23,161 nt of DNA from a virus (lineage: Duplodnaviria; Heunggongvirae; Uroviricota; Caudoviricetes). The stretch is taken from the IMG/VR virus record IMGVR_UViG_2695420643_000009; one strand, 5' to 3'. Position numbers and translations under genes: made by a program. Each line of letters opens with the position of its first letter. Position 1 is the stretch's first letter. The notes beneath the pieces are model-generated. The model saw nothing but the letters and a program-made list of their open reading frames with translations, did no database searches and was not told the DNA's origin. This document shows positions 1 through 23,161 of this stretch, piece by piece.

Positions 1-105
1 ACGAACTGCCCGTTGACGGACCTCGGGGGAAAAACGTGTATTTTTAGTCATCCTGTTTACCTCTTTCTCAGGGAGTTTAGTCTCCAGGATTCCCGGGGCG
101 GTTCA
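1..105 (-). mobile_element. IS3-family insertion sequence (IS629/IS3411-like), inner left-end only; transposase orfA starts at 51 and reads leftward out of the window
   Basis: Minus strand reads TGAACCGCCCCGGGAATCCTGGAGACTAAACTCCCTGAGAAAGAGGTAAACAGG-ATG-ACTAAAAATACACGT..., i.e. terminal TG, RBS and an ORF beginning [17 protein letters not shown], which I recognise as the N-terminus of IS3-family OrfA (HTH transposase). Element end placed at 105 from the terminal TGAACC. Near-identical copy in opposite orientation at 23082..23161. Confidence 0.7.
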
Positions 106-122
106 AAGAGGTTATTATCCTG

Positions 123-527
123 ATGGATCAGGTCGTTGTTTTTCAAAAGATGTTTGAGCAAGTGAGAAAAGAGCAAAACTTCTCCTGGTTTTATTCAGAA
201 TTAAAACATCACCGTATTGCACATTACATTTATTATCTGGCTACGGATAACATCAGAATTATTACTCACGATGACACGGTTTTGTTATTAAGAGGAACCA
301 GGAACCTGTTAAAAGTTAGTACGACCAAGAACCCTGCTAAAATAAAAGAGGCCGCATTGCTTCATATTTGCGGAAAATCTACATTTCGGGAATACTGTTC
401 AACACTAGCAGGCGCGGGCGTTTTCCGGTGGGTTACTGATGTTAATCATAACAAACGCAGTTACTACGCCATTGATAATACGCTTTTATATATTGAAGAT
501 GTAGAAAATAATAAACCATTAATCTAG
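123..527 (+). CDS. ycgX: DUF1398-family protein YcgX (chromosomal, function unknown)
   Basis: 134-aa ORF MDQVVVFQKMFEQVRKEQNF...; matches my recollection of E. coli YcgX in length and sequence, and sits next to iraM as in K-12. AAGAGG RBS 11 nt upstream of the ATG. Confidence 0.8.
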   Translation: MDQVVVFQKMFEQVRKEQNFSWFYSELKHHRIAHYIYYLATDNIRIITHDDTVLLLRGTRNLLKVSTTKNPAKIKEAALLHICGKSTFREYCSTLAGAGVFRWVTDVNHNKRSYYAIDNTLLYIEDVENNKPLI

Positions 528-736
528 CTAAAGTTGGATGCTTAAGAAATGCTTCATAATTCAGTAAGGCATTAGCATAATGGGAATAAAAGTACAGAGA
601 CTATCCCTATGGATGATAAATACTGTCCTTTTATTGCTACCCATAAATAATCACCATGCCAATACTATCAAATTGATATTTGAAATGTGATCACTTGACT
701 TTCTATACGTTATTTTATAACGGTTAATATATTTAT

Positions 737-787
737 AAAAACAACGGGTGTGCCATACGCCCGTTTCAATACTTAACGCACATGTGT
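737..787. repeat. Copy 1 of a ~48-bp terminator-like hairpin repeat (AAAACAACGGGTGTGCCATACGCCCGTTTCAATACTTAACGCACATGTG)
   Basis: About 85 percent identical by eye to 1593..1640, which is the hairpin just downstream of the icd stop. GC stem AACGGG.../...CCCGTT at 743..765, followed on the minus strand by a T-rich run. Confidence 0.5.
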
Positions 788-1222
788 TTTGGTTTAGTCA
801 TCATCCAGTTATATGTATTTTAGCCAGGAACAGGTTAAACCTTTCCTATATAACTCAAAAATTGAAACCTTATTCTCATGTCATGCTTATATTCATTATT
901 ATCGTTATATAAAAAGGCAACCATAATGTTTAGCAAATTGGCACAAAGTAGCATAAAGGCTATGTTTTAATTACAGGATGTTCAGTCATTTGAATGTATA
1001 ACATTATAGCTAAACAAATCTAAAACGAAGTGAATAATTTATTGTTTTCACTAAATCTCATTTTGTTTAACATCCATTGAGATTCCTTGCTTTAAATTTT
1101 GTTTTATATAAGCAATCGTTTTAATTAATTTATTTTTTGAAGGGGTAATATACTCATATGCAAAATAAAGAAATGAACATCCAAATGAACTATATTAAAT
1201 ACCGTGGGATAAGACATAACAA

Positions 1223-1546
1223 ATGAAGTGGATAGTAATTGACACGATAATTCAACCTTCATGCGGCATATCTTTTTCAGCCATATGGGGTAATATGAAA
1301 ATGATCATCTGGTATCAATCTACTATATTTCTCCCTCCTGGCAGTATATTTACACCGGTTAAATCTGGAATTATCCTTAAAGATAAAGAATATCCTATTA
1401 CTATTTATAACATCGCACCATTCAACAAGGATTTATGGAGTCTACTCAAAAGCAGTCAAGAGTGTCCTCCAGGAGAAAGAAAAATAACAAATAAATGTTT
1501 GCATAATAGTTGCATTATAAAAATATGCCCATATGGGCTCAAGTAA
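1223..1546 (+). CDS. iraM: Anti-adaptor protein IraM (inhibitor of RssB-mediated RpoS degradation)
   Basis: 107-aa [44 protein letters not shown]...KICPYGLK; recognised as IraM (same length, near-identical to K-12 as I recall it). AT-rich upstream region. Confidence 0.9.
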
Positions 1547-1602
1547 AGGGTTTTATATAAATATGCTCGATATGCTATTAATAATACCTACATAAATAAA
1601 AC

Positions 1603-1648: not shown

Positions 1649-1813
1649 TTACATGTTCTTGATGATCGCATCACCAAATTCTGAACATTTCAGCAGTTTA
1701 GCGCCTTCCATCAGACGCTCGAAGTCATAGGTTACGGTCTTCGCATTGATTGCGCCTTCCATACCTTTAACAATCAGGTCTGCGGCTTCAGTCCAGCCCA
1801 TATGGCGTAACAT
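1649..1813 (-). pseudogene. icdC: icdC: detached 3'-terminal 55 codons of isocitrate dehydrogenase (original icd 3' end displaced by prophage integration)
   Basis: Minus strand translates to [54 protein letters not shown], the Icd C-terminus. Homology to icd stops abruptly at 1813 (upstream is LN*), with no N-terminal part of icd present. Confidence 0.9.
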
Positions 1814-2000
1814 TAGTTAGATGACTAAATCGTAACTATTTGACATAGCAACATAATTTTACTAATTTGCATATAACTCATTAGCCCTTAGCATTTCTAT
1901 AACTCATTGATTATAAACATGTGTTTTTGAGTTTTGATAACCATTTTTAGCATAAAAATAGCAGTTAACATTTGCAGAAGTTAAGATCAGAAAAAATTTT

Positions 2001-2046: not shown

Positions 2047-2880
2047 TTATTTCTGTAATCGGTTTATATTAACGTAAAGCATCTCGATTAGTTCTTTTGC
2101 ATTTTTACTATAGTGCAATTCTCTATGGCAATTCGGACAAAGGGCAACACAGTTATCTGTTGTATCAGCACCACCTGAAGACAGGGGAATTACATGATGC
2201 ACTTCCAAATATGGGTTTCCATCATTTAAATAAAACGGAGCATTTTTACCACAGTTTTCACATATACCTTTACTTTGCTGTAAAATCCAAGCTTTTACCA
2301 TCGGGTCTCGGACATAAACTTTTTGTAGTCTTTCTACCTCAACTGGTTTCCTGGAGCCCTCGGGTTGACTCAACGTTTTCTTAATTAATTTACTAACCCT
2401 CATATTCAGAAGCGATTCATCATCTGTAGGCTGTGAAAGCTCTGATAGTTCTCCACGTATTATAGACGCCCAAAAACTGTCACTATAAATACCTGGAACA
2501 TTTATCAATATTCGTTTCGTTCTATTGCCGGAAGGAATTTCCTTTCTCCCCGTACGACTAAAATAAGCCTGATAACCACACATCTTCAAGCGTATATCGC
2601 GGGGGCTATTACCAATCAAAGTAAAATATTCACCAGGATGGATTTTTCTTTCATCCAAAGAATGCATATGTTTTCTGACTGATGATGACGCCAGATATAC
2701 TACGACTTGGGATACACCAGAATCAACCAACCGTTCAATGATATAATCAAGAGCGATATTGTAATCTTTGTTTCTGTCACCCGGCCCCCACGACTCAAGG
2801 ATTAGACCATAAACACCATCCTCTTCACCTATCGAACACTCAGCTTTCAGTTCAATTCCATTGTTATCAAAAACATGCAT
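2047..2880 (-). CDS. mcrA: McrA, 5-methylcytosine-specific restriction endonuclease (HNH nuclease)
   Basis: 277-aa ORF; C-terminal HNH/zinc motif CENCGK...EVHHVIPLSSGGADTTDNCVALCPNCH visible; length and sequence match my recollection of K-12 McrA; position (phage end next to pin) as in e14. Confidence 0.9.
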   Translation of the reverse strand: MHVFDNNGIELKAECSIGEEDGVYGLILESWGPGDRNKDYNIALDYIIERLVDSGVSQVVVYLASSSVRKHMHSLDERKIHPGEYFTLIGNSPRDIRLKMCGYQAYFSRTGRKEIPSGNRTKRILINVPGIYSDSFWASIIRGELSELSQPTDDESLLNMRVSKLIKKTLSQPEGSRKPVEVERLQKVYVRDPMVKAWILQQSKGICENCGKNAPFYLNDGNPYLEVHHVIPLSSGGADTTDNCVALCPNCHRELHYSKNAKELIEMLYVNINRLQK

Positions 2881-2986: not shown

Positions 2987-3541
2987 TTATTTATCCCCTG
3001 CAGGAAACCTCTTATACAAAGTTGACACACCAACATCATAGATAATCGCCACCTTCTGGCGAGGAACTCCTGATGCAATTAATCGTCCGGCCTGTTCCCA
3101 TTGTTCTGGTGTAAGTTTGGGACGACGTCCACCAATTCGTCCCTGTGCGCGAGCAGCTTCCAGTCCAGCTTTTGTTCTTTCAACAATCAGTTCACGCTCC
3201 ATTTCAGCCAGGGCACCCATCACATGAAAGAAAAAGCGCCCCATTGGGGTACTGGTATCAATTGAATCCGTCAGACTACGAAAGTTGATGCCTCGTTCGC
3301 GCAACTCCTCCACCAGCACGACAAGATGCCGCATACTGCGCCCTAGTCGGTCCAGTTTCCAGACCACCAGCGTATCACCTGCCGATAATGTCCTGAGCAG
3401 TTTTTTCAGTCCCGGCCTTTCGGACTTTGTACCGCTTATCTTGTCTTCAAAAATCAGCTCGCATCCTGCACAGTTCAGCGCATTACGTTGTAGATCTGTG
3501 TTCTGGTCATTTGTTGACACACGTACATAGCCAATAAGCAT
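2987..3541 (-). CDS. pinE: Pin DNA invertase (serine recombinase, Gin/Hin/Cin/Pin family)
   Basis: MLIGYVRVSTNDQNTDLQRNAL... with the catalytic-serine motif GYVRVST and a C-terminal HTH; 184 aa from the ATG at 3541, which has a GGGAG RBS 8 nt upstream. The ORF track's longer 196-aa start at 3577 has no RBS. Confidence 0.9.
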   Translation of the reverse strand: MLIGYVRVSTNDQNTDLQRNALNCAGCELIFEDKISGTKSERPGLKKLLRTLSAGDTLVVWKLDRLGRSMRHLVVLVEELRERGINFRSLTDSIDTSTPMGRFFFHVMGALAEMERELIVERTKAGLEAARAQGRIGGRRPKLTPEQWEQAGRLIASGVPRQKVAIIYDVGVSTLYKRFPAGDK

Positions 3542-3567: not shown

Positions 3568-4119
3568 ATGATGCCATTTGCTCGTTATTTCTGCATTTTC
3601 ATAAACGTTGGTTTGGGAGAAGGTTCGGCATTACCCGTTGGCGTGCCTGTTCCGTGGCCTTCCGCCACTCCGCCAACAGGCTGGCTGAAATGCAACGGTG
3701 CCGCTTTTTCTGCTGAAGAATACCCGGAACTGGCAAAGGCTTATCCGACAAATAAATTGCCTGATTTACGTGGTGAGTTTATTCGTGGCTGGGATGACGG
3801 GCGTGGAGTGGATAGCGGTCGTACTTTATTAACGAATCAAGAGCATGCAGTAATTTCTCATAATCATGGAATACCTACAAAAGTGGGGTCAGTTACTAAT
3901 ATCCCGTATGGAATAGAACAGGTTATATCTGATGAAACCATTTTTTCATCAGCAAAAACAGTTGGTGTGGATTACTGGTCTAACAGTGAGCGAGTTTTTA
4001 CTTATACCACTGGTGGAAGAAATGGTGCTGAATCAGTGAGTTCACCTGATGCCTCCTCTTTAATTAAAGAAACCAGACCACGGAACCTGGCATTTGCGTA
4101 TATCGTGAGGGCTGCATAA
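3568..4119 (+). CDS. stfE: Promoterless tail-fibre C-terminal (variable) cassette, stfE-like, duplicate copy A; lacks the constant N-terminal fibre domain
   Basis: 183-aa ORF whose residues from [32 protein letters not shown] to AYIVRAA are identical to the C-terminal 150 aa of the expressed fibre 6024..6824. DNA identity checked at several points. Confidence 0.55.
   Translation: MMPFARYFCIFINVGLGEGSALPVGVPVPWPSATPPTGWLKCNGAAFSAEEYPELAKAYPTNKLPDLRGEFIRGWDDGRGVDSGRTLLTNQEHAVISHNHGIPTKVGSVTNIPYGIEQVISDETIFSSAKTVGVDYWSNSERVFTYTTGGRNGAESVSSPDASSLIKETRPRNLAFAYIVRAA
3596..3621 (+). promoter_or_regulatory. pixL: 26-bp Pin crossover site (TTTTCATAAACG-TT-GGTTTGGGAGAA)
   Basis: Imperfect dyad with the same 12-2-12 architecture as gix (TTCCTGTAAACC-GA-GGTTTTGGATAA, from memory); lies between pin and the cassette; inverted-repeat identity with pixR starts exactly at the central dinucleotide (3608). 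Confidence 0.6.
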
Positions 4120-4550
4120 TGGATTACGCTGTATTAAATAACGAATTTATCGCCACCCAAGCAGGAAATATTACGGTTTATAACTATGATGGTGAAACAC
4201 GGGAATATATTTTCACATCAACTGAATATCTTGCTGTGGGTGTCGGCATTCCGGCATGTTCCTGTTTAGATGCTCCTGGCTCATACAAAACTGGGTATGC
4301 AATCTGCCGTTCTGCAGATTTTAACTCATGGGAATATGTGCCAGACCATCGTGGTGAAATCGTCTTTAGCACAGAAACAGGAGAATCAAAAGAAATCAAA
4401 GCTCCGGGTGATTACCCTGAAAATACAACCACTATCGCCCCTTTATCTCCATACGATAAATGGGATGGTGAGAAATGGGTAACCGATACTGAGGCACAGC
4501 ATAGCGCCGCAGTAGACGCGGCAGAAGCACAGCGCCAGTCACTGATTGAT
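3608..4550. repeat. Inverted repeat copy A (943 bp): stfE variable cassette plus first 144 codons of tfaE
   Basis: Perfect identity to the reverse complement of 5593..6535 wherever I spot-checked (boundaries, 4081..4140 vs 6001..6060, 4201..4260 vs 5881..5940); translated ORFs are identical. Confidence 0.85.
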
Positions 4551-4607
4551 TGGTTTGGGAGAAGCGGCAAAAAGGAATGTGGGCAACGGGGAAAACCAAA
4601 TCCCTGA
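4119..4607 (+). pseudogene. Truncated tail-fibre assembly gene: tfaE N-terminal 144 codons fused to 17 unrelated codons (WFGRSGKKECGQRGKPNP*)
   Basis: Identical to TfaE (5422..6024) through ...AEAQRQSLID, then diverges at 4551, where the sequence becomes the right half of a pix site. Confidence 0.6.
4538..4563 (+). promoter_or_regulatory. pixM: hybrid pix-like site (GTCACTGATTGA-TT-GGTTTGGGAGAA) with a canonical right half and a tfaE-derived left half
   Basis: Right half and centre identical to pixL/pixR; left half is tfaE coding sequence; the inverted-repeat identity ends inside the central dinucleotide (4550/4551). Confidence 0.45.
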
Positions 4608-5004
4608 TATGTCTTTCTGGACGGTTACTGGTGGCAATGGAAATTTTGTGATTCGTCAACCTGACGGGCTAATCACTCAGATGGTTACTGTAAGTATAAG
4701 CGGTCCAGTGGCGATGAATGGAATGACTGATAATGCTTATGCCATTACAGGTTCTAATAAGTCTTATATTGCCACAGCCACATTGCCCTTTGTATTTCCT
4801 AATAAGGTGCTGGGCGTTATCCCTCTGGTATCAACAACAGCCTATGGTGGTGTATCCAGTAATATTACAGGTTCATACGCGACGGCGGTTTGTTCTTTTG
4901 CCGCTGTCCGGGGGAATAATACGATTGTATTCAAAGTCGACAAACCACTGAATGCAGCCTTTCCTTCAGATACCAGCGTCTCAGCGTTAATCATTGGACG
5001 GTAA
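4549..5004 (+). CDS. Silent alternative tail-fibre variable cassette (Sv'); has no start of its own, would be fused in frame to the constant fibre domain after inversion
   Basis: Open frame ...IGLGEAAKRNVGNGENQIPDMSFWTV...VSALIIGR*. The GLGE codons (GGT TTG GGA GAA) are in the same phase as the GLGE at the Sc-Sv junction of the expressed fibre; followed directly by a tail-fibre assembly gene. Confidence 0.6.
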   Translation: MGLGEAAKRNVGNGENQIPDMSFWTVTGGNGNFVIRQPDGLITQMVTVSISGPVAMNGMTDNAYAITGSNKSYIATATLPFVFPNKVLGVIPLVSTTAYGGVSSNITGSYATAVCSFAAVRGNNTIVFKVDKPLNAAFPSDTSVSALIIGR

Positions 5005-5006
5005 TA

Positions 5007-5450
5007 ATGAACTCAGTATTCTTTTCACCCGGAAGTAAAAGTTTTTATCTACAAGAATTGTTTCCAGAATATGAGGATGCGGGAACGCTTCCAGATGATG
5101 TTATTGAAATTACCCGAGAAACATATGAGCAATTTCTTGGGCTGCATCCAGAAGGGAAAGAAATTGGCGCTGACAGTTCAGGACGGCCAATATGGATTAA
5201 TTCCCCACCGCCTTCAAAAGAGGATGAGGTGTTGATGGCTGAAATGAAAAAAATATCTTTGGTTTCAGAAGCCAATACCTACATCAATACCCATCAGTGG
5301 CCTGGCAAAGCTGCTATTGGTCGTCTGAAAGGTAACGAGCTGGAGCAATATAATTTATGGCTGGATTATCTGGACGCACTGGAACTGGTTGATCCCTCCA
5401 GTGCTCCAGATATTGAATGGCCTACGCCTCCGGCAGTTCAGGCCAGATGA
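5007..5450 (+). CDS. Tail-fibre assembly protein (alternative, tfaP-like), partner of the silent Sv' cassette
   Basis: 147-aa ORF MNSVFFSPGSKSFYLQELFPEYEDAG...IEWPTPPAVQAR; resembles the tail-fibre assembly chaperone family, including the C-terminal WP motif region; starts 3 nt after the Sv' stop; converges on tfaE. Confidence 0.7.
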   Translation: MNSVFFSPGSKSFYLQELFPEYEDAGTLPDDVIEITRETYEQFLGLHPEGKEIGADSSGRPIWINSPPPSKEDEVLMAEMKKISLVSEANTYINTHQWPGKAAIGRLKGNELEQYNLWLDYLDALELVDPSSAPDIEWPTPPAVQAR

Positions 5451-6024
5451 CATTCGGCGCGGTGCTGGTATCTGTTGCCGTCACCGCGTCAATGTAATCC
5501 AGCACAGCGTTAAGCTGGGTTGTTTCTGCCTGCGTCAGTTTCCGTCCGGCCTGTAATTTCAGCTGAATCAGACTGATGGAAGCCATTGCAGCATCAATCA
5601 GTGACTGGCGCTGTGCTTCTGCCGCGTCTACTGCGGCGCTATGCTGTGCCTCAGTATCGGTTACCCATTTCTCACCATCCCATTTATCGTATGGAGATAA
5701 AGGGGCGATAGTGGTTGTATTTTCAGGGTAATCACCCGGAGCTTTGATTTCTTTTGATTCTCCTGTTTCTGTGCTAAAGACGATTTCACCACGATGGTCT
5801 GGCACATATTCCCATGAGTTAAAATCTGCAGAACGGCAGATTGCATACCCAGTTTTGTATGAGCCAGGAGCATCTAAACAGGAACATGCCGGAATGCCGA
5901 CACCCACAGCAAGATATTCAGTTGATGTGAAAATATATTCCCGTGTTTCACCATCATAGTTATAAACCGTAATATTTCCTGCTTGGGTGGCGATAAATTC
6001 GTTATTTAATACAGCGTAATCCAT
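5422..6024 (-). CDS. tfaE: Tail-fibre assembly protein TfaE
   Basis: 200-aa [28 protein letters not shown]...VIWPELPEA; start overlaps the fibre stop; matches my recollection of e14 TfaE (200 aa). Confidence 0.85.
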   Translation of the reverse strand: MDYAVLNNEFIATQAGNITVYNYDGETREYIFTSTEYLAVGVGIPACSCLDAPGSYKTGYAICRSADFNSWEYVPDHRGEIVFSTETGESKEIKAPGDYPENTTTIAPLSPYDKWDGEKWVTDTEAQHSAAVDAAEAQRQSLIDAAMASISLIQLKLQAGRKLTQAETTQLNAVLDYIDAVTATDTSTAPNVIWPELPEA

Positions 6025-6535
6025 TATGCAGCCCTCACGATATACGCAAATGCCAGGTTCCGTGGTCTGGTTTCTTTAATTAAAGAGGAGGCATCAGGTG
6101 AACTCACTGATTCAGCACCATTTCTTCCACCAGTGGTATAAGTAAAAACTCGCTCACTGTTAGACCAGTAATCCACACCAACTGTTTTTGCTGATGAAAA
6201 AATGGTTTCATCAGATATAACCTGTTCTATTCCATACGGGATATTAGTAACTGACCCCACTTTTGTAGGTATTCCATGATTATGAGAAATTACTGCATGC
6301 TCTTGATTCGTTAATAAAGTACGACCGCTATCCACTCCACGCCCGTCATCCCAGCCACGAATAAACTCACCACGTAAATCAGGCAATTTATTTGTCGGAT
6401 AAGCCTTTGCCAGTTCCGGGTATTCTTCAGCAGAAAAAGCGGCACCGTTGCATTTCAGCCAGCCTGTTGGCGGAGTGGCGGAAGGCCACGGAACAGGCAC
6501 GCCAACGGGTAATGCCGAACCTTCTCCCAAACCAA
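5593..6535. repeat. Inverted repeat copy B (943 bp): expressed stfE variable region plus tfaE N-terminal part
   Basis: Reverse complement identical to 3608..4550 (see copy A). Confidence 0.85.
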
Positions 6536-6824
6536 GGTTTTCGAGAGCTGTTTTCACCGTGCCATCCGATTTGATATCGCCAAACGGATTCTTGCGGCTT
6601 AACAGCAGCGCACGAAGCGCGGTAAGCAACTGGTCGTGCCGCGCCTTCTCCAGGCTGGCACCGGATGCCTCCACCACGCTGCAGAGTTCTTCCTGCAACA
6701 TATCAAAGTAGTCATCATCCAGATCGGTGGCAGGCGTGCCAGTCTGGGGGTTACCACGGGTAAAACCGTTCTTACCCACGCCGAACTTATCCTTCTGCGC
6801 GGTTTTCGTGTCTATACGATGCAT
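6024..6824 (-). CDS. Side tail-fibre protein: constant N-terminal domain (about 116 aa) fused at a GLGE junction to the stfE-type variable C-terminal domain; currently the expressed fibre
   Basis: 266-aa [24 protein letters not shown]...; GGAG RBS 7 nt upstream; start 3 nt after the ymfQ stop; C-terminal half is duplicated at 3608..4119. Confidence 0.85.
6522..6547 (-). promoter_or_regulatory. pixR: 26-bp Pin crossover site inside the fibre gene (minus strand CTCTCGAAAACC-TT-GGTTTGGGAGAA)
   Basis: Near-palindromic; same right half as pixL but on the opposite strand (inverted orientation, as inversion requires); encodes the ...ENLG-LGE junction of the fibre. Confidence 0.6.
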
Positions 6825-6827
6825 GGA

Positions 6828-7412
6828 TTACTCCGGATATTTAAAAATTACGTAGGTATGCGACGGGCAGAGTTTGTTAAGCACACACTCGACAACGGTG
6901 TCACCCCAGATACGCAGTGCGGAATCACAGGGATCGCCACATGTCATCCAGGTGGTGTTGGTGGTGGTTGGCATGTTGACCTGCCAGTAATACCGCCATT
7001 CCGGCGCATTCACCGCGTCAGTACAGGCCGATGAGCAGGTGAACGTGCTTTTGTCGTATCGCGTGATGGTGGCATCTGGTCTGCCCAGGGCAGCAAGCTG
7101 TGCAAGATAAAAATCCTCGTTGATGCCGCCCGCCAGGTTAACCTTCGCATCCAGCCGTTGCTGACGCTGGCGAAGGGTCTGCGTTCCCGCCGGAATACAT
7201 TCATCCGGCAGACCGCACAGACGCTCCCAGCGGTTTATCAGTTCAGTGGTGGTGCGCGGATCCAGCTCCCGCATCAGGGCATCCGCACGCTGATGAACAC
7301 GGGTTAATGACGGTGCCGCACCGGCAATCGCCGGATCGCTGGCTGACCACGCCGGACCGGGCGGCAACAGTGCCGATAACAGGCGGATGTAATCATCGTT
7401 TGTCACGTCCAT
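6828..7412 (-). CDS. ymfQ: YmfQ-like tail/baseplate protein (Mu gp48-like, DUF2313)
   Basis: 194-aa ORF directly upstream of the fibre gene; same length and position as e14 ymfQ as I recall it. Confidence 0.75.
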
Positions 7413-8461: not shown

Positions 8462-8876
8462 GCGTTATCGCACTCCACAGATCATCAAAAGAAATCATTA
8501 CCGGTCCGTCACGACGCCAGAGAGTGATACTGTTACCCAGTTCATTAATCCCGGTGCGGTGGATATCCAGATCAATACGGGACACCACGCCGTCATCAAT
8601 CATCCATTGCAGGCATTCGCGGATATACCCCCTTACCGTCAGCACCAGCTGATTGGTCAGTTTGCTGCGCTGAAGCAGCCACAGTCGGGAGCCGTAACGG
8701 TCATTCTGTACCGCAGGCCAGGTATCCCCCCACCATCCCATCGGGACGTCGGCGTTGTCATCAGGCTCCGCCCGCCGCCAGGTAAACAGGGAAATCACCA
8801 CGGCGCGGGTCAGCGGATCCAGCGGTGCGCTGGCGCAGGTGCGTTTACCGTTCACCGTCAGCCACAGTTCCATCAT
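8448..8876 (-). CDS. Baseplate protein, Mu gp46-like
   Basis: 142-aa ORF with the Trp-rich character of the gp46 family; overlaps both neighbours. Confidence 0.65.
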   Translation of the reverse strand: MMELWLTVNGKRTCASAPLDPLTRAVVISLFTWRRAEPDDNADVPMGWWGDTWPAVQNDRYGSRLWLLQRSKLTNQLVLTVRGYIRECLQWMIDDGVVSRIDLDIHRTGINELGNSITLWRRDGPVMISFDDLWSAITHGGQ

Positions 8877-11825: not shown

Positions 11826-11885
11826 ATAAACTCCGTACATAAAAAATCCCACCGGAGTGGGACTCATTAACAGATTAATTTTTCA

Positions 11886-14488: not shown

Positions 14489-15984
14489 TATGCAGACTCC
14501 TCTGAATACTGAAGACGGAACTGGTTAACCACGGCAAAGACACGCAACTGGTTAACATAGTCAGGCGGGAACAGCGTGTTCAGGCGGTTCGGATCGCTGG
14601 CATCACGCTCCACAATCAGGTACTGCTTGAACAGTTCGTAGTTTTCCACGATCCCCGCACGCTCGAGCTGACGGTAGGTTGCCAGCAGTTCCCCTTTGAT
14701 CACCGCCGGGGTGACAATCGCCTGACCGGGACCAAAGCGGGTACCGTCACTGGCAAGCTTGTGACGCCCGTACTTACTGGTAATGACGGATTTCAGTTTG
14801 CGCAGTACATACGCGCTGGTATGCAGCGTCTCGCTGTCGAGGTAGCTGTTATCCGCAACACCGTAAGCGTTTTTCCTGTACGTGGTGACATCACGCTGAA
14901 TGCGCAGCACCCCGCTTTCGACATACGCCGTTGCCACGCCATGAGACAGCAGGGTCTGTTGTTCGGTCATCGTGAACCGTTTCCCCTTCGGCGCAGGCAG
15001 CATACCCACCAGCTCACCGGTCTGCGTGGGACGTGCCGGATCGTTGCGAATAAACACCGCTGCGCGGGCGGTACGGCTTGCCGCCAGCTCGTCGGCAGGC
15101 GTCTGGGTCTCTTTTTCGTATCCCGCCAGGGTAATGTGCTGCTGGTTAAACTGGTCACCTGCGGTCACCAGTTCTGACAGCGTGCCGATCTTTGCCGTGT
15201 ACACATGACCATACAGCTGACGCGCATAGCTCCAGCGACCGCTGGTATCGTTCATCTCGGTCACCAGCGTGTTAACGGAGGCCGTGTCGTTGAACGGCAG
15301 GCCGATATAATCAAACGGCTCATCCGCCATTGCAGCCACCGCGCCGGTGAGAACAGGAGCGCCCGTTCCGGCGGTACCCGTCGCCACGGCAATCTGTACG
15401 CCCGCTGGCAGCACTTCGCCCCCACCAAAGCCGTAGTAATTGAGGCTGACAGGAATTTCATTCCCGCAAAGCCCCTTATGACGCGCGGTCAGTGTGACCA
15501 CGCCTGCCGAAGATGAGGCAGTAAACGGCAGGGTCGGAACGGCATTGATGGCATCTTTGATACTGCTGGCAATCGTCGCGACGTTATCGCCGTTGGTCAC
15601 CGGTGCCTGCACGCGGGTACGTCCCACATAAACATTCACCGTGCCGGTTTCGGTTGCCGCGCCGGTCACCGTCAGCGTAACTGTTGCCGCCGCGCCCGTG
15701 GATTCAGGAACGGCAATCACATACAGTTCACCAAACGGGTCGGTCTGGCGATAAGCCTCGACCATACGCGCCAGCTGACTTCCCGCACCACAAATCTGGC
15801 GTGCATAGTCTGCCGACGGCATCAGCACCAGACTGTTGGCAACAATCTCTGCACCGTTATTGGCATGACCAATCAGCAGCGATGCTCCGCTGTCCTGTGC
15901 AGTATTCGCAGCCTGGTTATCCATTTCCGCATAAAACAGCGGAACCAGCGTATTCGACGGAATGGTGTTAAAGCTTATCGTCAT
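14488..15984 (-). CDS. Contractile tail sheath protein (Mu gpL-like)
   Basis: 498-aa ORF; size, position and sheath-family resemblance. Confidence 0.85.
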   Translation of the reverse strand: MTISFNTIPSNTLVPLFYAEMDNQAANTAQDSGASLLIGHANNGAEIVANSLVLMPSADYARQICGAGSQLARMVEAYRQTDPFGELYVIAVPESTGAAATVTLTVTGAATETGTVNVYVGRTRVQAPVTNGDNVATIASSIKDAINAVPTLPFTASSSAGVVTLTARHKGLCGNEIPVSLNYYGFGGGEVLPAGVQIAVATGTAGTGAPVLTGAVAAMADEPFDYIGLPFNDTASVNTLVTEMNDTSGRWSYARQLYGHVYTAKIGTLSELVTAGDQFNQQHITLAGYEKETQTPADELAASRTARAAVFIRNDPARPTQTGELVGMLPAPKGKRFTMTEQQTLLSHGVATAYVESGVLRIQRDVTTYRKNAYGVADNSYLDSETLHTSAYVLRKLKSVITSKYGRHKLASDGTRFGPGQAIVTPAVIKGELLATYRQLERAGIVENYELFKQYLIVERDASDPNRLNTLFPPDYVNQLRVFAVVNQFRLQYSEESA

Positions 15985-16138
15985 CGGTGTTCACCTTTTT
16001 ATTCACGCGCCGGATATCACCCGCTGCTTCACGGCGCAGCCAGTAGTTGTTCTCATCAACATTTCGCCCTTCGGCGGGCAAAAGGTCGCCGTGGGCAGGG
16101 TCAGGCACTGACCGCCCTTTAACAGGTTTCACAAACAT
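15968..16138 (-). CDS. Small hypothetical protein (56 aa) preceding the sheath gene; absent from the ORF track because it is under 60 aa
   Basis: ATG at 16138 with GAGGA just upstream; MFVKPVKGRSVPDPAHGDLLPAEGRNVDENNYWLRREAAGDIRRVNKKVNTDDDKL; stop overlaps the sheath start; fills the only gap in the operon. Confidence 0.3.
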   Translation of the reverse strand: MFVKPVKGRSVPDPAHGDLLPAEGRNVDENNYWLRREAAGDIRRVNKKVNTDDDKL

Positions 16139-16146
16139 GATGATCC

Positions 16147-16707
16147 TCAGGAAGGAAGGGGTATTTCGGTGTGATGTTCGATATCGCCGTCAGGCCCGTT
16201 ACCGGGATCGAGATAATCAACATCAATCGCCAGCGTTCGCAGTTCATCCAGACTGTTCAGGTCATCCTGCTGGCGGGTATCGTCTTCGGTCAGCTCGCTG
16301 ATGACCGAAAAATCGAACTGATAAATCAGCTCATGACGATTCAGATCCAGCAGCGTGCCGCCGTCATAGGTAATCGGGTTACCACACGCTTCCGGGTTCC
16401 AGCCCAGCAGAGCCTTAAAGAGCATCTGCCGGACATCGTCCACCACATCATACGAGGCAAACTGACCGCGCTCATCACGCCCGTTACTCAGTATGACAAC
16501 CACGGAGAAGCCCTCTTTCAGCTCCTGCCAGTAGTCGGTCTGGCTTTTGTTTTCTCCCGGAGAGTCATCACCCGGTACCACATATGCCGCCGGGAGCTTC
16601 AGCTTTCCGACCTCCGGCAGATTTTTGAACTGGGCCGCGCCTGCCACCCGGTTTTCAAAATACGGACAGCGGGCACGCAGCGCAGCAATAACAGGAGTCA
16701 GTTTCAT
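16147..16707 (-). CDS. Putative tail terminator / tail completion protein (Gp37-like)
   Basis: 186-aa ORF in the head-to-tail junction block; assignment by position and weak family resemblance only. Confidence 0.4.
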   Translation of the reverse strand: MKLTPVIAALRARCPYFENRVAGAAQFKNLPEVGKLKLPAAYVVPGDDSPGENKSQTDYWQELKEGFSVVVILSNGRDERGQFASYDVVDDVRQMLFKALLGWNPEACGNPITYDGGTLLDLNRHELIYQFDFSVISELTEDDTRQQDDLNSLDELRTLAIDVDYLDPGNGPDGDIEHHTEIPLPS

Positions 16708-17210
16708 CTGTGTCGTCGCTCCGGCTTCAGTGATTTACGCAATTCCCGCGCCAGAAAATAGCGTGTCCAGCTGCGGTTCTTTTCAAGCGTTTCCACCATG
16801 AAGTTATTACGTGGAGCCAGTCGCCAGCCGCTGCCACCGGATGCACCACGATGATGGCTGCGACGACGCTTTGCCCCTCGCCTCACGCCATAGAACAAAA
16901 AAGCCGGATAAAAATCACCGGTGATACGACGGTTTCCCTCTCCATTACGCTGGTTAGGGGCTATACGTGCCATAAAACCAGGGCGATGTTTACTGGCTCT
17001 GGGTACCATGTAACCAATCGAATGAGCCAGGCGTCCGGTCTGATAACCGGGGTTTTCACCCGGTGCCGACCGCGCACGGCGCATCACCAGCCGACGGGCA
17101 TCACGCATATGACGCTGACCAATCGTGACAAACGCCCGCCGGACACGGGCGCGGTTAAAGCGCATCTCCGCAGGCTGCTGAAAATCAACGTGCAAAAAGG
17201 AAGTCGTCAT
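16704..17210 (-). CDS. Putative tail completion protein (HK97 gp10-like)
   Basis: 168-aa Arg-rich ORF; position in the connector block. Confidence 0.4.
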   Translation of the reverse strand: MTTSFLHVDFQQPAEMRFNRARVRRAFVTIGQRHMRDARRLVMRRARSAPGENPGYQTGRLAHSIGYMVPRASKHRPGFMARIAPNQRNGEGNRRITGDFYPAFLFYGVRRGAKRRRSHHRGASGGSGWRLAPRNNFMVETLEKNRSWTRYFLARELRKSLKPERRHR

Positions 17211-17595
17211 TGTTGCCTCCGTGACTCTGCCTACATTCGCCCAGCTCCGTACACTCCAGCAGCAGAAAGCGCCGCGCCCCGTTCAGATCGCGCTGACGTT
17301 TCACCCGGTACACACTGTCACCGCAGACCACCTCATAATCAGCGGTGATCCCCCGGCGGTAACGAATGGTGATGTAATGGGTGATGGCGTCCCCGGTCTG
17401 CGCGGTTTCCTGCCAGGTGGTGGCACTGGTCTGGATAACCTTCGCCCATGTCCGGAACGTAACCGGGTATTGAGGCTCCACGCCAAAGTTATCCGCGGGC
17501 ATATCCACCCGCTGGCGGATCAGGACGCGTTTATTCAGTTCACCGGGGTCCGGCAGAATGTAGGTTGCGCTGGTCTGCGCCTGACGAATTTTCAT
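17185..17595 (-). CDS. Putative head closure / head-tail joining protein
   Basis: 136-aa ORF; position after the gp6-like connector gene. Confidence 0.45.
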   Translation of the reverse strand: MKIRQAQTSATYILPDPGELNKRVLIRQRVDMPADNFGVEPQYPVTFRTWAKVIQTSATTWQETAQTGDAITHYITIRYRRGITADYEVVCGDSVYRVKRQRDLNGARRFLLLECTELGECRQSHGGNNDDFLFAR

Positions 17596-17915
17596 TGCGG
17601 AAAGTACCTGTACGGGCCGACAAGCCAGCCAAAACTCTGCGGCATGTCGAGTTTCTCCACTTCCGTAACCGACGAGCGGTTTTCGTAAAAATGGCTGATA
17701 AGCATCAGCATCCCCAGACGAATATCATCCGGCAGGTGCAGCCCGTCCGGATCGCTGTCCGGAATGGTTTCATCCGGTGCATAGAGCTTCCGGTTCAGAT
17801 ACGTTTCCGTCCGCTTTTGTGCCGCACAGGCCAGCAGTTGCAGATGGCGGTCATCAGCATCGAAATCCTCATCCAGCCGGAGTTGGGCTTTAATCTCTTC
17901 CATTGTCAGAAGCAT
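17592..17915 (-). CDS. Head-tail connector protein (gp6-like)
   Basis: 107-aa acidic ORF MLLTMEEIKAQLRLDEDFDADD...; pattern typical of gp6-like connectors. Confidence 0.55.
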   Translation of the reverse strand: MLLTMEEIKAQLRLDEDFDADDRHLQLLACAAQKRTETYLNRKLYAPDETIPDSDPDGLHLPDDIRLGMLMLISHFYENRSSVTEVEKLDMPQSFGWLVGPYRYFPQ

Positions 17916-17917
17916 AC

Positions 17918-18118
17918 TCAGCCCTCTTTACTGGTCGTGGCTTTTTTCTCTTTTGTCGCTTTACTGCTTTTTGCACTGGTTCCGCGCTCTGCTAACCCGG
18001 CCTGAAGTGCAATCTCCTGCACCCGGGCAGGAAGCGCCCCGTCGTCATACTCACCGGCCCGAATGACCTCAACACGCATACCGTCCGGTGACCATTTCAG
18101 ATCTTGTTTCAGGATCAT
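17918..18118 (-). CDS. Small lysine/serine/threonine-rich hypothetical protein after the capsid gene
   Basis: 66-aa ORF; C-terminus TSAKSSKATKEKKATTSKEG; preceded by a GC hairpin. Confidence 0.4.
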   Translation of the reverse strand: MILKQDLKWSPDGMRVEVIRAGEYDDGALPARVQEIALQAGLAERGTSAKSSKATKEKKATTSKEG

Positions 18119-18138
18119 GATTCTTCACCCGTCAGAAC

Positions 18139-18160
18139 AGGGGCGCGGTTCCGCGCCCCT
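18139..18160 (-). promoter_or_regulatory. GC-rich stem-loop immediately after the major capsid gene (possible attenuator or mRNA-stability element)
   Basis: AGGGGCGCGG-TTC-CGCGCCCCT, a 9-10 bp GC stem; not followed by a U-run on the coding strand. Confidence 0.4.
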
Positions 18161-18166
18161 GAGTGA

Positions 18167-19372
18167 TTACGCCACTGCAATCTTCAGCAGTTTGATGGCC
18201 TGCGAATCGACCAGCATGCCGCCGGTGCGTTTGGTGGTATAAAAACCGACAAACGGTTTATTGGTGTACGGGTCACGCAGAATGCGGGTGCCGATACGGT
18301 CAACGATGGTGTAACCCCGTTTGAAGTTACCAAATGCAATGGCTTTCGCATCAGCGGCGATATCCGGCATCTGTTCGTTTTCAGCGATACCGTAACCCGC
18401 CAGAGAGGACGGCTGCCCCAGCTCCAGCCCCGGACGCCACAGATAGTTACCCTCGCTGTCTTTCAGCAGACGGATGGCAAACAGGCTGTTGTTGTTCATC
18501 ATGAACTTCGCGCCTGTGCGGTGTGCCTTACGCAGCGTGTAAATCAGTTTGATAATGGCGTCTGCGGTCACCGCCGTCGCGTCGCCGGATACAATATGCT
18601 GAAGTTTGCCGAACGCCCGGACCTTATCGGTTTCATCCGTGGATTCATACGCCAGGAACCCTTTCGGCTTCTTGGTACCATCGCCGGTGGTAAAGGCAAT
18701 TTCTTCCTGTTCGGCAAATTCGGTTGCCAGCTCGCTGTTGATCCATGCTTCCACGTTGAAAAAGGCATCATCCAGCATTTTCTGGGTGGCCTGCGGGTTA
18801 CCGTAGATTTCCCCCATGAAAGGTTCAATCAGGCCCAGTTTTGAGGTGGCAGTCTGGGAGCGCGCGTCAGTCTCGCCAACCCATCCGGAAGCCGTGCCGC
18901 CCAGATTCACCAGTTTTTTGTAGTCGGAACCACCAACGGTGATCACCGTGGCTTCCTGGCGCATCACCACTTCATCTTTCAGCAGGGTGAGAATGTTGCG
19001 ATCCAGTGCTTCCGGCACGGCATAGCCGCCGTCTTCATCGGTGCCCACCTGTAATGCCTTGCGCTCCAGATCGCGCAGACCATCTTCACGGCCTTTACGC
19101 AGGAAGCCCACAAACGCTTCTTTATGCTCGGTGGTCAGTTTATTTTGCGCACCACCTGCCGGACGTTTCAGCTCAAGCAGCTCTTTTTCAAGGTCGCTTT
19201 TGAGATTTTCCAGCTCGCTGAGTTTCCCGTTCAGGGTTTCCACCTGCCCGGCAAGCTTGCCTTTTTCCTGCTCAATCGCATCCACGCGCTTGTCGTTCTT
19301 TGCTTTGAAGTCGTCAAACTTCTGCTGCAGCTCCTGCGCGACCTGTTCGACATCTTTAATATCAACCGCCAT
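18167..19372 (-). CDS. Major capsid protein, HK97 family (with N-terminal coiled-coil delta/scaffold domain)
   Basis: 401-aa ORF; N-terminal 70 aa is heptad-rich (KLAGQVETLNGKLSELENLKSDLEKELLELK); follows a prohead protease gene. Confidence 0.9.
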   Translation of the reverse strand: MAVDIKDVEQVAQELQQKFDDFKAKNDKRVDAIEQEKGKLAGQVETLNGKLSELENLKSDLEKELLELKRPAGGAQNKLTTEHKEAFVGFLRKGREDGLRDLERKALQVGTDEDGGYAVPEALDRNILTLLKDEVVMRQEATVITVGGSDYKKLVNLGGTASGWVGETDARSQTATSKLGLIEPFMGEIYGNPQATQKMLDDAFFNVEAWINSELATEFAEQEEIAFTTGDGTKKPKGFLAYESTDETDKVRAFGKLQHIVSGDATAVTADAIIKLIYTLRKAHRTGAKFMMNNNSLFAIRLLKDSEGNYLWRPGLELGQPSSLAGYGIAENEQMPDIAADAKAIAFGNFKRGYTIVDRIGTRILRDPYTNKPFVGFYTTKRTGGMLVDSQAIKLLKIAVA

Positions 19373-19386
19373 CGTATTTCTCCTGA

Positions 19387-20037
19387 TTAGAAGTTCAGAT
19401 TTTTCAGTGCATTCAGTGCAGAGCCCACATCCTCAGCGTCGCGCAGGGACAGTGCGCCATAGCCCCCGGCCATGAATGCTTTGGCCTGGGTACGGGAGAG
19501 TCCGACATCACGCAGGACTCTTTCGATTTTTTTCTGTTCGGGGATTTCCCCGCGGGCCAGTGCGTTCTTGACGTCGCTGATCCGCGCCTCGTCGTTAGAC
19601 GGGAACGTCACCAGGCTGACTTCCCAGAGGTCGATTTCTTTCAGCAGAAAGGCTTCTTTGCTCCGGTCGTATTCCCAGTCTTTCAGGACGTACCCAATAG
19701 AAAGGCCGGTTAACGAACCGGCCTTCATGTGTGCATGTGCGCGTTTTGCGAGGGGATCATCATCAATAAGCAACCGTCCCCTGACGTAAAGCCCGACATC
19801 GTCTTCCTTCATTTCGGTGTAAACACCGATGGGTTCATCCATGCGGTGCTGCCAGAGCAGCGCAGGTAACGCTTTTCTGTCACTCCACGCCCGCAGGGAA
19901 GCAGCAAATGCCCCGGACATCACCACATCATCGTGGCTGTCCTTTACACCAAAGACGGAGCCATACCCTTCAAACTCACCGGAGTCACTGACAGATTTCA
20001 GACTCAGCGGTACATCAAGACGTTGTTTCGTCTGCAT
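19387..20037 (-). CDS. Prohead protease, HK97 family
   Basis: EGYGSVFGVKDSHDDVVMSGAF motif region. Start taken at the ATG at 20037 (AAGGA RBS upstream) rather than the track start at 20073; overlaps the portal 3' end by 23 nt. Confidence 0.8.
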   Translation of the reverse strand: MQTKQRLDVPLSLKSVSDSGEFEGYGSVFGVKDSHDDVVMSGAFAASLRAWSDRKALPALLWQHRMDEPIGVYTEMKEDDVGLYVRGRLLIDDDPLAKRAHAHMKAGSLTGLSIGYVLKDWEYDRSKEAFLLKEIDLWEVSLVTFPSNDEARISDVKNALARGEIPEQKKIERVLRDVGLSRTQAKAFMAGGYGALSLRDAEDVGSALNALKNLNF

Positions 20038-21256
20038 TGGCGTTATCCTTCTGCTTACCGGCTTTACTGCCATCGGAGGGTTTCGTGGTCATGTTCATCG
20101 GTGTGAGATAGACATCACCACCGGGACGCGGATTCATATCTTCCAGGTCGCGGCAGTCATTGGGAGAGTAAATTCCCCAGTTAATCCCGGTGGCGTAGGC
20201 TTCAAAACGGGACTTCATATCCCCGCGCAGTAACGCCCCGGCGTTAAATTTGGCGTAATAAACGCCCTGCTTACTTTTTCGTACCAGTCCGGTGTTGATC
20301 CGCTGTTCGATGCGGGTCAGATACGGCACCAGTGAATAGTTGATAAATCCGAGCCCCAGTTCTTCGATATTGTTGAAGGTGGCGCGATCGGTGTTCTGCA
20401 CCATGTGCAACGGTACCCGGAACAGACGACAGATTTCTTCAAGCTGAAACTTGCGGGTTTCCAGGAACTGGCTGTCCTCGGCGTTCAGCGCCATCGACTT
20501 CCAGTCCAGCCCCATCTCAAGGATCATCGGGCGGTGAGCATTGCCAAGCCCGGTGTGACGCTCCTCAAAATCTTTCTTCAGGCGCTCGTAAGCCTGATCT
20601 GACAGCGTCTGCTCTGTACGCAACACACCCGACGTCACCGCGCCATTGCTGAACAGTCTGGCCCCGTGCTCTTCGGTCGCTGCCGCCAGCGATATTGCCT
20701 CGCGGGCATAGGCGATGGGATTCAGCCCCACCAGTCCGTCCAGCGTCAGCGTGCGCACATGCCAGATATCCTCCTGGCTCAGTACATCCGTGGAGCCATC
20801 CGGGAATGTGACCTGATAGACCGGCTCCCAGCTACTGTTAAGCTTCGGTACCACACAGCCGGGATCGACGGGCAGCAGTTCAGCCACTTCGCCAAATGCT
20901 TTCACTTTGTAGGCATAAAAGTTTCCCCGCAGGCACAGACAGGTGACCACCAGCTCCCAGAACTCCTGCGGCGTCATATAGCCATTGGGATGCGTGGAGA
21001 TCAGCTTATGCAGACGTTCGCCAGTGGCTCTCTGCTTCAGGCTGCCGTTCAGGCGATACAGGTTGCAGGGCAACATCCCGACCGACTCCGCCAGCACCCT
21101 GACGCAGGAAAAAACCGCCGTCAGTCGCATGGCCCTCTGGCTGCTGATCTGCTTTCCGGTATAGGTGTCGTATGACAGCCCGATAGCATCCACCAGCTCT
21201 GCTGGCGTGGTCACCGGTGCGTCACTTTTTCGTTGAAATAATCCCGAAAAGAACAC
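20015..21256 (-). CDS. Portal protein, HK97 family
   Basis: 413-aa ORF starting with GTG that overlaps the stop of the upstream small gene by 1 nt; portal-family resemblance; position between terminase and protease. Confidence 0.85.
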   Translation of the reverse strand: MFFSGLFQRKSDAPVTTPAELVDAIGLSYDTYTGKQISSQRAMRLTAVFSCVRVLAESVGMLPCNLYRLNGSLKQRATGERLHKLISTHPNGYMTPQEFWELVVTCLCLRGNFYAYKVKAFGEVAELLPVDPGCVVPKLNSSWEPVYQVTFPDGSTDVLSQEDIWHVRTLTLDGLVGLNPIAYAREAISLAAATEEHGARLFSNGAVTSGVLRTEQTLSDQAYERLKKDFEERHTGLGNAHRPMILEMGLDWKSMALNAEDSQFLETRKFQLEEICRLFRVPLHMVQNTDRATFNNIEELGLGFINYSLVPYLTRIEQRINTGLVRKSKQGVYYAKFNAGALLRGDMKSRFEAYATGINWGIYSPNDCRDLEDMNPRPGGDVYLTPMNMTTKPSDGSKAGKQKDNANADETTS

Positions 21257-21438
21257 TATTTACCTCCACCAACAGACATCTGTGTACGGTCGAGATATCG
21301 CGCCACCAGCCACGACCAGAACAGGCACAACGCCCCGGCAACAACAAACCCCGCCGGGGGATAAATCAGCCAGGCACCATACGCCAGCAAAAGCACCCCC
21401 AGCACGCCCACCAGAGGCGCGAGAATCAGCATGATCAT
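21256..21438 (-). CDS. ymfR: Small two-helix membrane protein (YmfR-like)
   Basis: 60-aa [56 protein letters not shown]...; GAGG RBS; coupled to the portal gene. Symbol assigned from the matching length and position of e14 ymfR as I recall it. Confidence 0.55.
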
Positions 21439-21449
21439 AATTACCTCAG

Positions 21450-23060
21450 TTAAAGCGAGCGGATCCCGTAGGACTCAATGTGGTCGGACAGCGCGTCTTC
21501 TTTCTCATACAGCATGGCTCTGCCAACCGCCATAATCAGCGCAACTGCACCATCGATTTTGTTTTCCGCCTGCTCTTTGACGGGCTTCACCACATCATCG
21601 TTACCCGGAATGGTTTTGCCGACCACGTTGCCGATACACCAGGTCATGATGGGATTGCCATCATGATGAAAGCGCCCCGATTCAATTGCCGCTTCCAGCT
21701 CTTTCATCGGGTCGGACATGTTGGTGTAGTTCTGAATGATGGTGATGGGATTCAGGTCTTCATCAGCAAGGTCATGTGACAGCCCGGTCGCCCCGAAGGG
21801 GTCGATGGGTGACTCGCTGACCGGGCTGATTTTGTTCGCCGCTTTGGCCTCTTCGAGGATGTAGCGATAATCCACCTCTGCACCATCGGTAACGGTCAGG
21901 ACGCCCATTTCCACCCATTTCTGAAAGCGTTCGGCTGTCCGGCGATCTTCATTTTTCTCGACGCTGTACACCGTGTCATACGGTACCCAGAAACGCGGGG
22001 CCACACTGTAGTAATGCGTTTTACCGTCAATCTCGCGGGTATAAAGTCGCGCCATGCTGTTCATATCCAGCTTACGCGCCAGGTCAAAGGCCAGAATGCA
22101 CGGCTGCCCCTCGAACTGCTCAAGAGTCAGTGATTTATCCTCGCAGCTCTGCCAGCTCACCAGGTTGAAATACGCCGAACGCGCCGACACCCAGATATTG
22201 AGGTGTTTTGTTTTAAAGACGTTTGCCAGACGGGCGTTATTTTTCGCACGCTGCTGCTGACTTAACAAAAATTCGCGATAAACCGACACGCCAATATTCG
22301 GGTTAGCTTTTTCCAGCACCTGCGGGTCGGTCCAGTCATCGCCTTCGTCAACGGTATAGATGATCCCGAACAGTTCATCGTTGGGTACCGACCCGTTGAG
22401 CATCTCGATAACTTCCCGTCGCTTGTCGTAGCACGGCCCCTCAATGTTGTACCCGGCGGTGGTGATGGCCCACATCAGTGGCTGACGTCGCGCGCCCATC
22501 CCGGTAAGCATCGTGGTATAAAGCGCATCGGTGGCGTGCTCGTGATATTCATCCACCACGGCACAGTGGGGTGATGAACCATCACCGGGGTTACCGATCA
22601 GCGGTTCAAACCGCGCGCCATCCTCCGGACGGTTCATGTTTGAGGCGTTAACCTCAATCCCGAACGCTTCCGTCAGCATGGGTGTGCGTTTACACATCAG
22701 TCGTGCCGGGCGAAAGACTTCCCACGCCTGTTTCTCTGTCGTGGCACCGGAATACACTTCCGCGCCAAACTCGTTATCACAGGCAAAACAATACAGGGCA
22801 ACACCGGCAGAGATTGCCGATTTGCCGTTCTTACGGGGGATTTCGGTATACACCTCCCGGAAGCGGCGCAGCCGGGCCCCTTTATTGACCCAGCCAAACG
22901 CACAGCAGACCACAAATAGCTGCCACGGCTCCAGCGTGATGGGCATCCTCTTGAATGCCCACTCACCCTTGGTGTGCGGCAACAGCTGAATAAATTTGGC
23001 GGCCCGTTCAGCCAGGTCCTTGTCGAAGCGGTAACGAAACGACTTACTTTTTTCCGCCAT
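21450..23060 (-). CDS. Terminase large subunit
   Basis: 536-aa ORF; Walker A-like motif EIPRKNGKS; ATPase and nuclease arrangement; first gene of the packaging-head operon. Confidence 0.9.
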
Positions 23061-23081
23061 CAGGTCATCAAGATGGCGCTG
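23061..23081 (-). pseudogene. Last 6 codons (SAILMT*) of a truncated upstream gene, most likely the small terminase subunit, cut by the IS
   Basis: In the -1 frame relative to the terminase, the 21 bp between the IS end and the terminase ATG read AGC GCC ATC TTG ATG ACC TGA, with the TGA overlapping the terminase ATG (TGATG coupling). Confidence 0.45.
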
Positions 23082-23161
23082 TGAACCGCCCCGGAAATCC
23101 TGGAGACTAAACTCCCTGAGAAAGAGGTAAACAGGATGACTAAAAATACTCGTTTTTCCCC
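23082..23161 (+). mobile_element. IS3-family insertion sequence (IS629/IS3411-like), left end only; orfA starts at 23136 and reads rightward out of the window
   Basis: TGAACCGCCCCGGAAATCCTGGAGACTAAACTCCCTGAGAAAGAGGTAAACAGG-ATG-ACTAAAAATACTCGTTTTTCCCC; about 97 percent identical to the reverse complement of 1..105 (two mismatches seen). Confidence 0.7.

Follow-up and report, generated by a model that had tools for sequence, protein, structure and literature searches.

The DNA analyzed here is a 23,161-nt stretch recorded in IMG/VR as a virus of the class Caudoviricetes (IMGVR_UViG_2695420643_000009), and "the window" below means this whole stretch. From left to right it carries the Escherichia coli genes ycgX and iraM and a duplicated 3' fragment of icd, followed by prophage genes that encode an McrA endonuclease, a DNA invertase, tail fibers, the tail, the head, and most of the large terminase subunit (terL) (Table 1). 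At each edge of the window lies the left end of an insertion sequence (IS) of the IS3 family. The two ends are inverted with respect to each other, so that each element continues outward, beyond the window. The identity of the two elements, the sites into which they are inserted, and the origin of the bracketed arrangement are the subjects of this report.

Two inverted IS629-group ends

The ends of the window are inverted copies of one element. Positions 26 to 105 and 23082 to 23161 (80 nt) were paired by a repeat finder and by alignment, with 78 of the 80 bases identical, and the left copy runs for 25 nt beyond the shared part, up to window position 1. Exactly two positions differ, namely, IS position 14 (G in the left copy and A in the right copy) and IS position 69 (A in the left copy and T in the right copy). 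The arms delivered by the repeat finder were slightly longer (26 to 108 and 23079 to 23161; 83 nt, 96% complementary); their outermost 3 nt are flanking DNA, AAG on the left and CAG on the right, and represent a chance extension into the flanks in which 2 of the 3 bases match. An 80-nt inverted match at 97.5% identity within 23 kb is far beyond chance. The remaining inverted pairs listed in the window measure at most 31 nt at 71 to 82%, except for a 948-nt pair in the tail fiber region (see below). The original prediction, made from the letters alone, had described near-identical end repeats with two mismatches, and the alignment agrees with it; only the limits that it gave for the left repeat (28 to 105) need correction, as the inner limit was 2 nt off.

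Both ends have the features expected of IS629 and IS1203 elements within the IS3 family. Each has the left inverted repeat (IRL) tip TGAACCGCCCC..., and the terminal sequence TGAACCGCCCCGG(G/A)AATCCTGGAGAC, which begins with 5'-TG, is the same as the IRL of full-length reference copies (L025 and L026). The orfA ATG lies just inside the IRL, at IS position 55 in both copies, and both reading frames open with MTKNTRFS and read into the element; the window holds 17 orfA codons of the left copy and 8 codons (MTKNTRFS) of the right copy. The inverted, outward-reading left ends of IS3-family elements that had been predicted are therefore borne out by the IRL tips and the orfA starts. The left 105 nt are 100% identical to annotated IS3-family transposase elements on plasmids of enterohemorrhagic E. 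coli (EHEC) O26, O111, O103, and O145 and on the chromosome of O145 strain RM9872. For the right 80 nt, identity is 100% to copies in O157:H7 and numerous other strains that bear the annotation "IS3-like element IS1203 family transposase." The assignment to the group is thus one of near-identity to annotated copies over the 105 and 80 nt that are visible.

The two reference copies represent the left subtype (L025) and the IS1203 subtype (L026). Each is 1310 bp long, encodes a DDE transposase in two parts (orfA and orfB, with a -1 frameshift), ends in a right inverted repeat, and is flanked by a 3-bp target-site duplication (TSD), AGC for L025 and AAG for L026. They differ, without gaps, at 59 of 1310 positions (95.5% identity), and their longest identical run is 125 bp. 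Published work shows that IS629 subtypes differ by 55 to 60 bp, that the IS1203 type and another IS629 subtype occur together in one genome, that target duplications are 3 to 4 bp, and that 62% of IS629 copies reside in prophages (PMC3271280). Because each end fits a different natural subtype, as in this published picture, the window ends belong to two separate IS629-group elements and not to one copy seen twice, in line with the prediction of two distinct but closely related ISs.

One alternative is an artifact, in which both ends of a contig received the sequence of one IS or a consensus built from many copies. The distance from each window end to an IS tip is indeed only about 100 nt, as at contig breaks caused by repeats, and only the first 80 to 105 nt of an element are present. 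The two ends, however, differ at two positions, with each version an exact match to a different natural subtype. The target sequences that they adjoin are also different and genuine, and the break at each IRL tip is clean. Collapse of one IS onto both ends, an outcome for which the original prediction had allowed, is for these reasons very unlikely. Since the targets differ and the breaks are clean, the junctions are real even if assembly sets the ends of the window.

Table 1. Features of the 23,161-nt window
Feature	Position	Strand	Remarks
IS629-group IS3-family left end	1..105	-	IRL tip at 105, start codon of orfA at 51-49; remainder of element lies to the left, outside the window
Native remnant upstream of ycgX	106..122	+	Holds Shine-Dalgarno sequence AAGAGG (106-111); AAG at 106-108 is the expected 3-bp TSD
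ycgX (DUF1398)	123..527	+	Open reading frame (ORF); annotated ycgX in 99.5-99.8% identical regions of L001 and H105-H129
iraM (anti-adapter protein)	1223..1546	+	ORF; annotation transferred from L001
icdC, duplicated icd 3' fragment, prophage attachment site (attR side)	1649..1816	-	"Isocitrate/isopropylmalate family dehydrogenase, incomplete" pseudogene in L001
mcrA (5-methylcytosine-specific HNH endonuclease), prophage accessory gene	2047..2880	-	ORF; L001 annotation; PF01844 HNH on identical protein
pinE (serine DNA invertase)	2987..3541	-	L001 annotation; PF00239 Resolvase and HTH_7 on neighboring call in L015-L036
Pin-invertible tail fiber region	3603..6540		948-nt perfect terminal inverted repeats (3603-4550 and 5593-6540), three crossover-type sites
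Complete tail (Mu-like baseplate, sheath, tube, tape measure) and head (HK97-type capsid, protease, portal) module	6024..21438	-	ORFs; L001 annotation; Pfam families in genes of identical or nearly identical sequence; 97.6-97.8% identity to phages SfI, SfII, SfIV, SfV, and vB_EcoM-689R6
Terminase large subunit gene cut by right IS	21450..23081	-	Codons 35-577 kept; first 34 codons (102 nt) beyond the IS
IS1203/IS629 left end	23082..23161	+	IRL tip at 23082, orfA ATG at 23136; element continues rightwards out of the window

Insertion points in the bluR-ycgX spacer and in terL

Elements of the IS3 family transpose by a copy-out/paste-in mechanism and duplicate 3 to 4 bp of the target. On the left, 17 bp separate the IS tip from the ATG of ycgX, just as predicted. 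In two relatives (L019 and L001) the corresponding empty site reads ...CACAACTAAC followed directly by AAGAGGTTATTATCCTGATG, and it matches the window up to the base beside the IRL tip. Judged by this comparison, the left IS sits directly 5' of the ycgX Shine-Dalgarno sequence, in the bluR-ycgX spacer.

The original prediction had gone further and proposed that the native promoter of ycgX was displaced. Only the Shine-Dalgarno sequence has been left attached to the gene, and 17 bp would be too short for a promoter, suggesting that native upstream control was removed. A simple promoter scan of window positions 1 to 130 revealed no sigma-70-like site reading from the IS end into ycgX, and the same scan revealed no consensus sigma-70 site in the native bluR-ycgX spacer either. 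Displacement of a promoter is therefore an argument from geometry.

The bluR-ycgX spacer of L001 (NZ_CM149575.1) holds an IS of its own, an IS2-like element of the IS3 family at positions 4560 to 5905 that ends approximately 95 bp upstream of the IS629 site. This spacer has therefore been struck independently at least twice.

On the right, the IS interrupts terL. The terL gene of L001 is 1734 nt long, and window position 23081 corresponds to a point 102 nt past its start, exactly 34 of its 577 codons. Over positions 17450 to 23081, the last 5,632 non-IS bases, the draft genome of a relative (L013; GCA_019555375.1) matches the window at 100.000% identity and continues through the site uninterrupted and without an IS. 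Its empty site, 100% identical there, reads ...GATGGCGCTG followed directly by GCAGGCCTGAATC. Another relative (L014) has an intact 577-amino-acid (aa) TerL, and terL is likewise intact at this position in phages SfI, SfII, SfIV, and SfV. The trinucleotide CTG at 23079 to 23081 would be the TSD of the right IS. With terL split after codon 34, the prophage would be expected to be unable to package DNA.

In five relatives that lack the IS (L002, L006, L008, L010, and L013), terL is called not as a 577-aa protein but as a 498-aa protein from MPITLEPW, with a 234-nt gap after terS. The choice of start codon or a lesion in the 5' part of the gene may underlie this call.

Both junctions were sought in other genomes. 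Neither was present in complete E. coli genomes (0 of 5,426), and the exact junction patterns had no match in species-representative genomes, metagenome contigs, or viral contigs. In a protein look-up, neither a TerL truncated at an ATG (536 aa) nor a TerL running to the window edge (569 aa) was on record. Look-ups with the 498-aa TerL call and with a rare 456-aa DNA-circularization protein of the prophage returned only relatives without the IS; the portal protein, McrA, and a 183-aa fiber fragment were too common to discriminate. The IS-bracketed unit was thus found nowhere else in the collections searched.

Gene order and repeats in the interior

Between the two IS ends (positions 106 to 23081), the window is collinear with complete E. 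coli genomes, 103 of which match it at 80% window coverage or more. All matches listed start at 106 and stop at 23081, and these genomes carry no IS at either site. Only the Pin-invertible fiber region is broken up in the alignment. In L001, the best match, from which the annotation was taken, the order is bluF, bluR, the spacer, ycgX, ymgL, ymgK, iraM, the icd 3' pseudogene, mcrA, pinE, and the invertible fiber and fiber assembly genes, followed by genes for a Mu-type baseplate, the tape measure, the tube, and the sheath, HK97-type head genes, the portal gene, ymfR, terL, terS, an HNH gene, and lysis genes. The region of L001 is 99.5%/97.9% identical to the window (one alignment spans 106 to 3622). 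The backbone part (106 to 3600) has at best 99.8% identity, to Shiga toxin-producing E. coli (STEC) strains such as O113:H21 and O91, and the morphogenesis module has 97.3 to 97.8% identity to the functional phages SfI, SfII, SfIV, SfV, and vB_EcoM-689R6. The icd 3' duplication, mcrA, pin, the invertible fiber genes, the Mu-type tail, and the HK97-type head together identify an e14/SfV-like prophage at icd.

This interior bears on the suggestion of the original prediction that the pair of ISs could act as a composite element, moved or mobile as a unit with the DNA between them. Two related, inverted ISs around a segment do have the formal layout of a composite transposon. What lies between them, however, is backbone of the chromosome together with two-thirds of a prophage (the attR-proximal part), all in native order, and each inner junction continues the native neighbor sequence exactly; moreover, the searches described above found the unit at no other locus. 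The outer ends of such a transposon would both be right inverted repeats (IRRs), of two different subtypes. Elements of the IS3 family move by way of IRR-IRL circle junctions and seldom give rise to composites. A composite transposon is, on this evidence, scarcely credible.

Several further properties of the interior were observed. The 277-aa McrA of the window is found in identical form in 27,069 blocks of the assembly collection. On many long contigs with the identical protein (L015-L018 and L021-L024), the neighbors that follow pin and mcrA are not iraM and ycgX but a DUF3626 gene and genes for pertussis-like toxin subunits (PF02917/PF02918), so that this end of the prophage is also found in another setting. 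The 456-aa form of the DNA-circularization protein (10497 to 11867) is present on 3 contigs only in the assembly collection, including PURU01000036.1 and PURV01000036.1, and most relatives have a 442-aa form. Relative to its nearest neighbors, the prophage is mosaic. A 43-nt direct repeat (738 to 780 and 1598 to 1640; 84% identical) brackets iraM, and each copy includes a short GC-rich hairpin, AACGGGYGTG..ATACGCCCGTT; it may be an element resembling repetitive extragenic palindromes or a terminator. An Rfam scan of the window returned no matches.

The 948-nt pair in the fiber region is the largest repeat inside the block, makes this region unusual, and is unrelated to the IS finding. Each arm holds an identical copy of one fiber C-terminal cassette and of ∼144 codons from the start of the assembly gene that belongs to it. 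The truncated copy and the second cassette meet at a third crossover-type site, a hybrid with the sequence CACTGATTGA-TT-GGTTTGGGAGAA (4540 to 4563) whose left half is fiber assembly coding sequence. The outcome is a duplicated fiber cassette A, in a truncated copy, beside cassette B. None of the 5,426 complete E. coli genomes has the junction between 4550 and 4551, with every match stopping at 4550, and the chimeric 162-aa ORF (4119 to 4607, a Tfa fragment) was not on record in the protein look-up. The duplication could be a product of unequal invertase-mediated recombination or illegitimate recombination, or a misassembly. An assembly chimera of mixed orientations was considered as the source of the repeat and was thought unlikely, as the junction between 4550 and 4551 is not at a homologous switch point.

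Two probably independent insertions and their relation to known elements

What the ends are, where precisely they were inserted, which relatives have uninterrupted sites, and how the interior aligns are all read directly from the comparisons described above. They are very probably explained by two independent, recent IS629-group insertions into an otherwise ordinary stretch of the E. coli chromosome, most like that of B1-type STEC, with the window ends most likely set by these repeats. A copy of the subtype found on the O26/O111/O103/O145 plasmids would have landed in the bluR-ycgX spacer, and terL of an SfV/SfI/e14-like prophage at icd would have received a copy of the IS1203 subtype behind its codon 34. 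The consequences would be local, with ycgX severed from its upstream sequence and DNA packaging lost through the split of terL. For two independent insertions, an inverted orientation is a 50:50 outcome.

Independent insertion makes specific predictions for the DNA beyond the window, where full-length IS copies with normal outer flanks would be expected. Each IS would be of one subtype throughout, with TSDs of AAG (left) and CTG (right). The IRR of the left IS would be flanked by ...CACAACTAACAAG, on the bluR side. The IRR of the right IS would be flanked by CTGGCAGGCCTGAATC..., the rest of terL and then terS, and this IRR would adjoin CTGGCAGGCC, from the terL 5' end. On the plus strand, the left outer junction would read ...GCAGTCTCACAACTAACAAG followed by TGAACCGCCCCGG(T/G)TTTCCTGGAGAG..., approximately 1310 bp before window position 105, and the right outer junction would read ...CTCCAGGAAA(A/C)CCGGGGCGGTTCA followed by CTGGCAGGCCTGAATCACAAACTGG....

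Why the window ends where it does is a related matter. IS629-group ends are present in 3,575 of the 5,426 complete E. coli genomes, at a median of 3 and a maximum of 50 places per genome. They are therefore a typical point at which assemblies break. The chance that two random ends would both fall within ∼100 nt of an IS tip was roughly estimated as less than 1e-6, assuming ∼20 copies in ∼5.5 Mb; because this chance is negligible, the window ends are likely to have been set by multicopy repeats, as at contig breaks. The phrase "bracketed by IS ends" would then very probably describe how this piece of DNA was delimited and not a functional unit.

Two points weigh against this account as a whole. 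The visible parts of the elements amount to 105 and 80 nt only, with the outer ends, the TSDs, and the outer flanks beyond the window. In addition, the window spans a perfect inverted repeat of 948 nt, which short reads normally leave unresolved, and yet it stops in 1.3-kb IS copies; the contig-break account of the window ends is for this reason likely rather than proven. Short-read contigs of at least two relatives appear to break near the 948-nt repeat (PURU01000036.1 and ABBVIQ010000075.1).

A further alternative, also raised in the original prediction, is that the 23-kb block is inverted, or switches orientation, through RecA-dependent recombination between the inverted IS copies. The geometry permits such an event, as the copies lie 23 kb apart and, if full length, would be ∼95.5% identical with identical runs of up to 125 bp, and inversions brought about by ISs are familiar from IS-rich E. 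coli and Shigella. An inversion would leave both inner junctions unchanged, so that the window would look the same with or without it; it would be recognized by its outer layout, with terS and the 5' end of terL lying beyond the left IS and bluR lying beyond the right IS. Positive evidence for it was not found. The two ends keep their own subtype bases at IS positions 14 and 69, which excludes only crossovers within the first 69 nt. Subtypes that are 4.5% apart recombine less readily than identical copies, and the prior for inversion by any given IS pair is low. We therefore regard inversion as improbable. If it had occurred, the head and tail genes together with mcrA, iraM, and ycgX would be uncoupled from upstream regulators, and the icd/e14 locus would carry a strain-specific structural polymorphism.

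The significance of two independent insertions is small beyond annotation. Copies of IS629 and IS1203 in the prophages and backbone of IS-rich E. coli are a textbook situation and are already known. The two IS629-group insertion sites are specific to the strain and might be useful for typing, and an otherwise complete SfV/e14-like prophage would appear to have been disabled by an IS in terL. More generally, a window flanked on both sides by matching IS ends usually owes them to the way in which its sequence was delimited and not to a mobile or invertible unit.

Among known systems, the two window ends most closely resemble the IS629/IS1203/IS3411 elements of the IS3 family found in O157:H7, non-O157 EHEC, and Shigella. 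They share with these elements the terminal TGAACCGCCCCGG..., an orfA that starts at IS position 55, and its N terminus, and their placement, with one copy in a prophage and the other in backbone DNA, is typical (PMC3271280). They differ, over the 105 and 80 nt compared, only in the two insertion sites, which are absent from the 5,426 complete genomes. Tn5 and Tn10 likewise have two related IS copies inverted around a segment; here, in contrast, the interior is native and in place, and each arm is of a different subtype of IS3-family element. The substrate for the IS-mediated inversions of EHEC and Shigella, inverted homologous IS copies 23 kb apart, is present, whereas the interior and the inner junctions are as expected for simple insertions. 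Finally, the prophage shares with e14 of K-12 and with the Shigella flexneri phages SfV, SfI, SfII, and SfIV the order ycgX-iraM-icdC-mcrA-pinE-fiber-baseplate-tail-head-terminase, as well as the HK97-type head and the Mu-type tail, and it is located, like e14, at icd. The e14 element is a 15-kb remnant, whereas the prophage of the window has a complete morphogenesis module; its terL, however, is split by an IS, and its fiber region carries an extra 948-nt inverted duplication.

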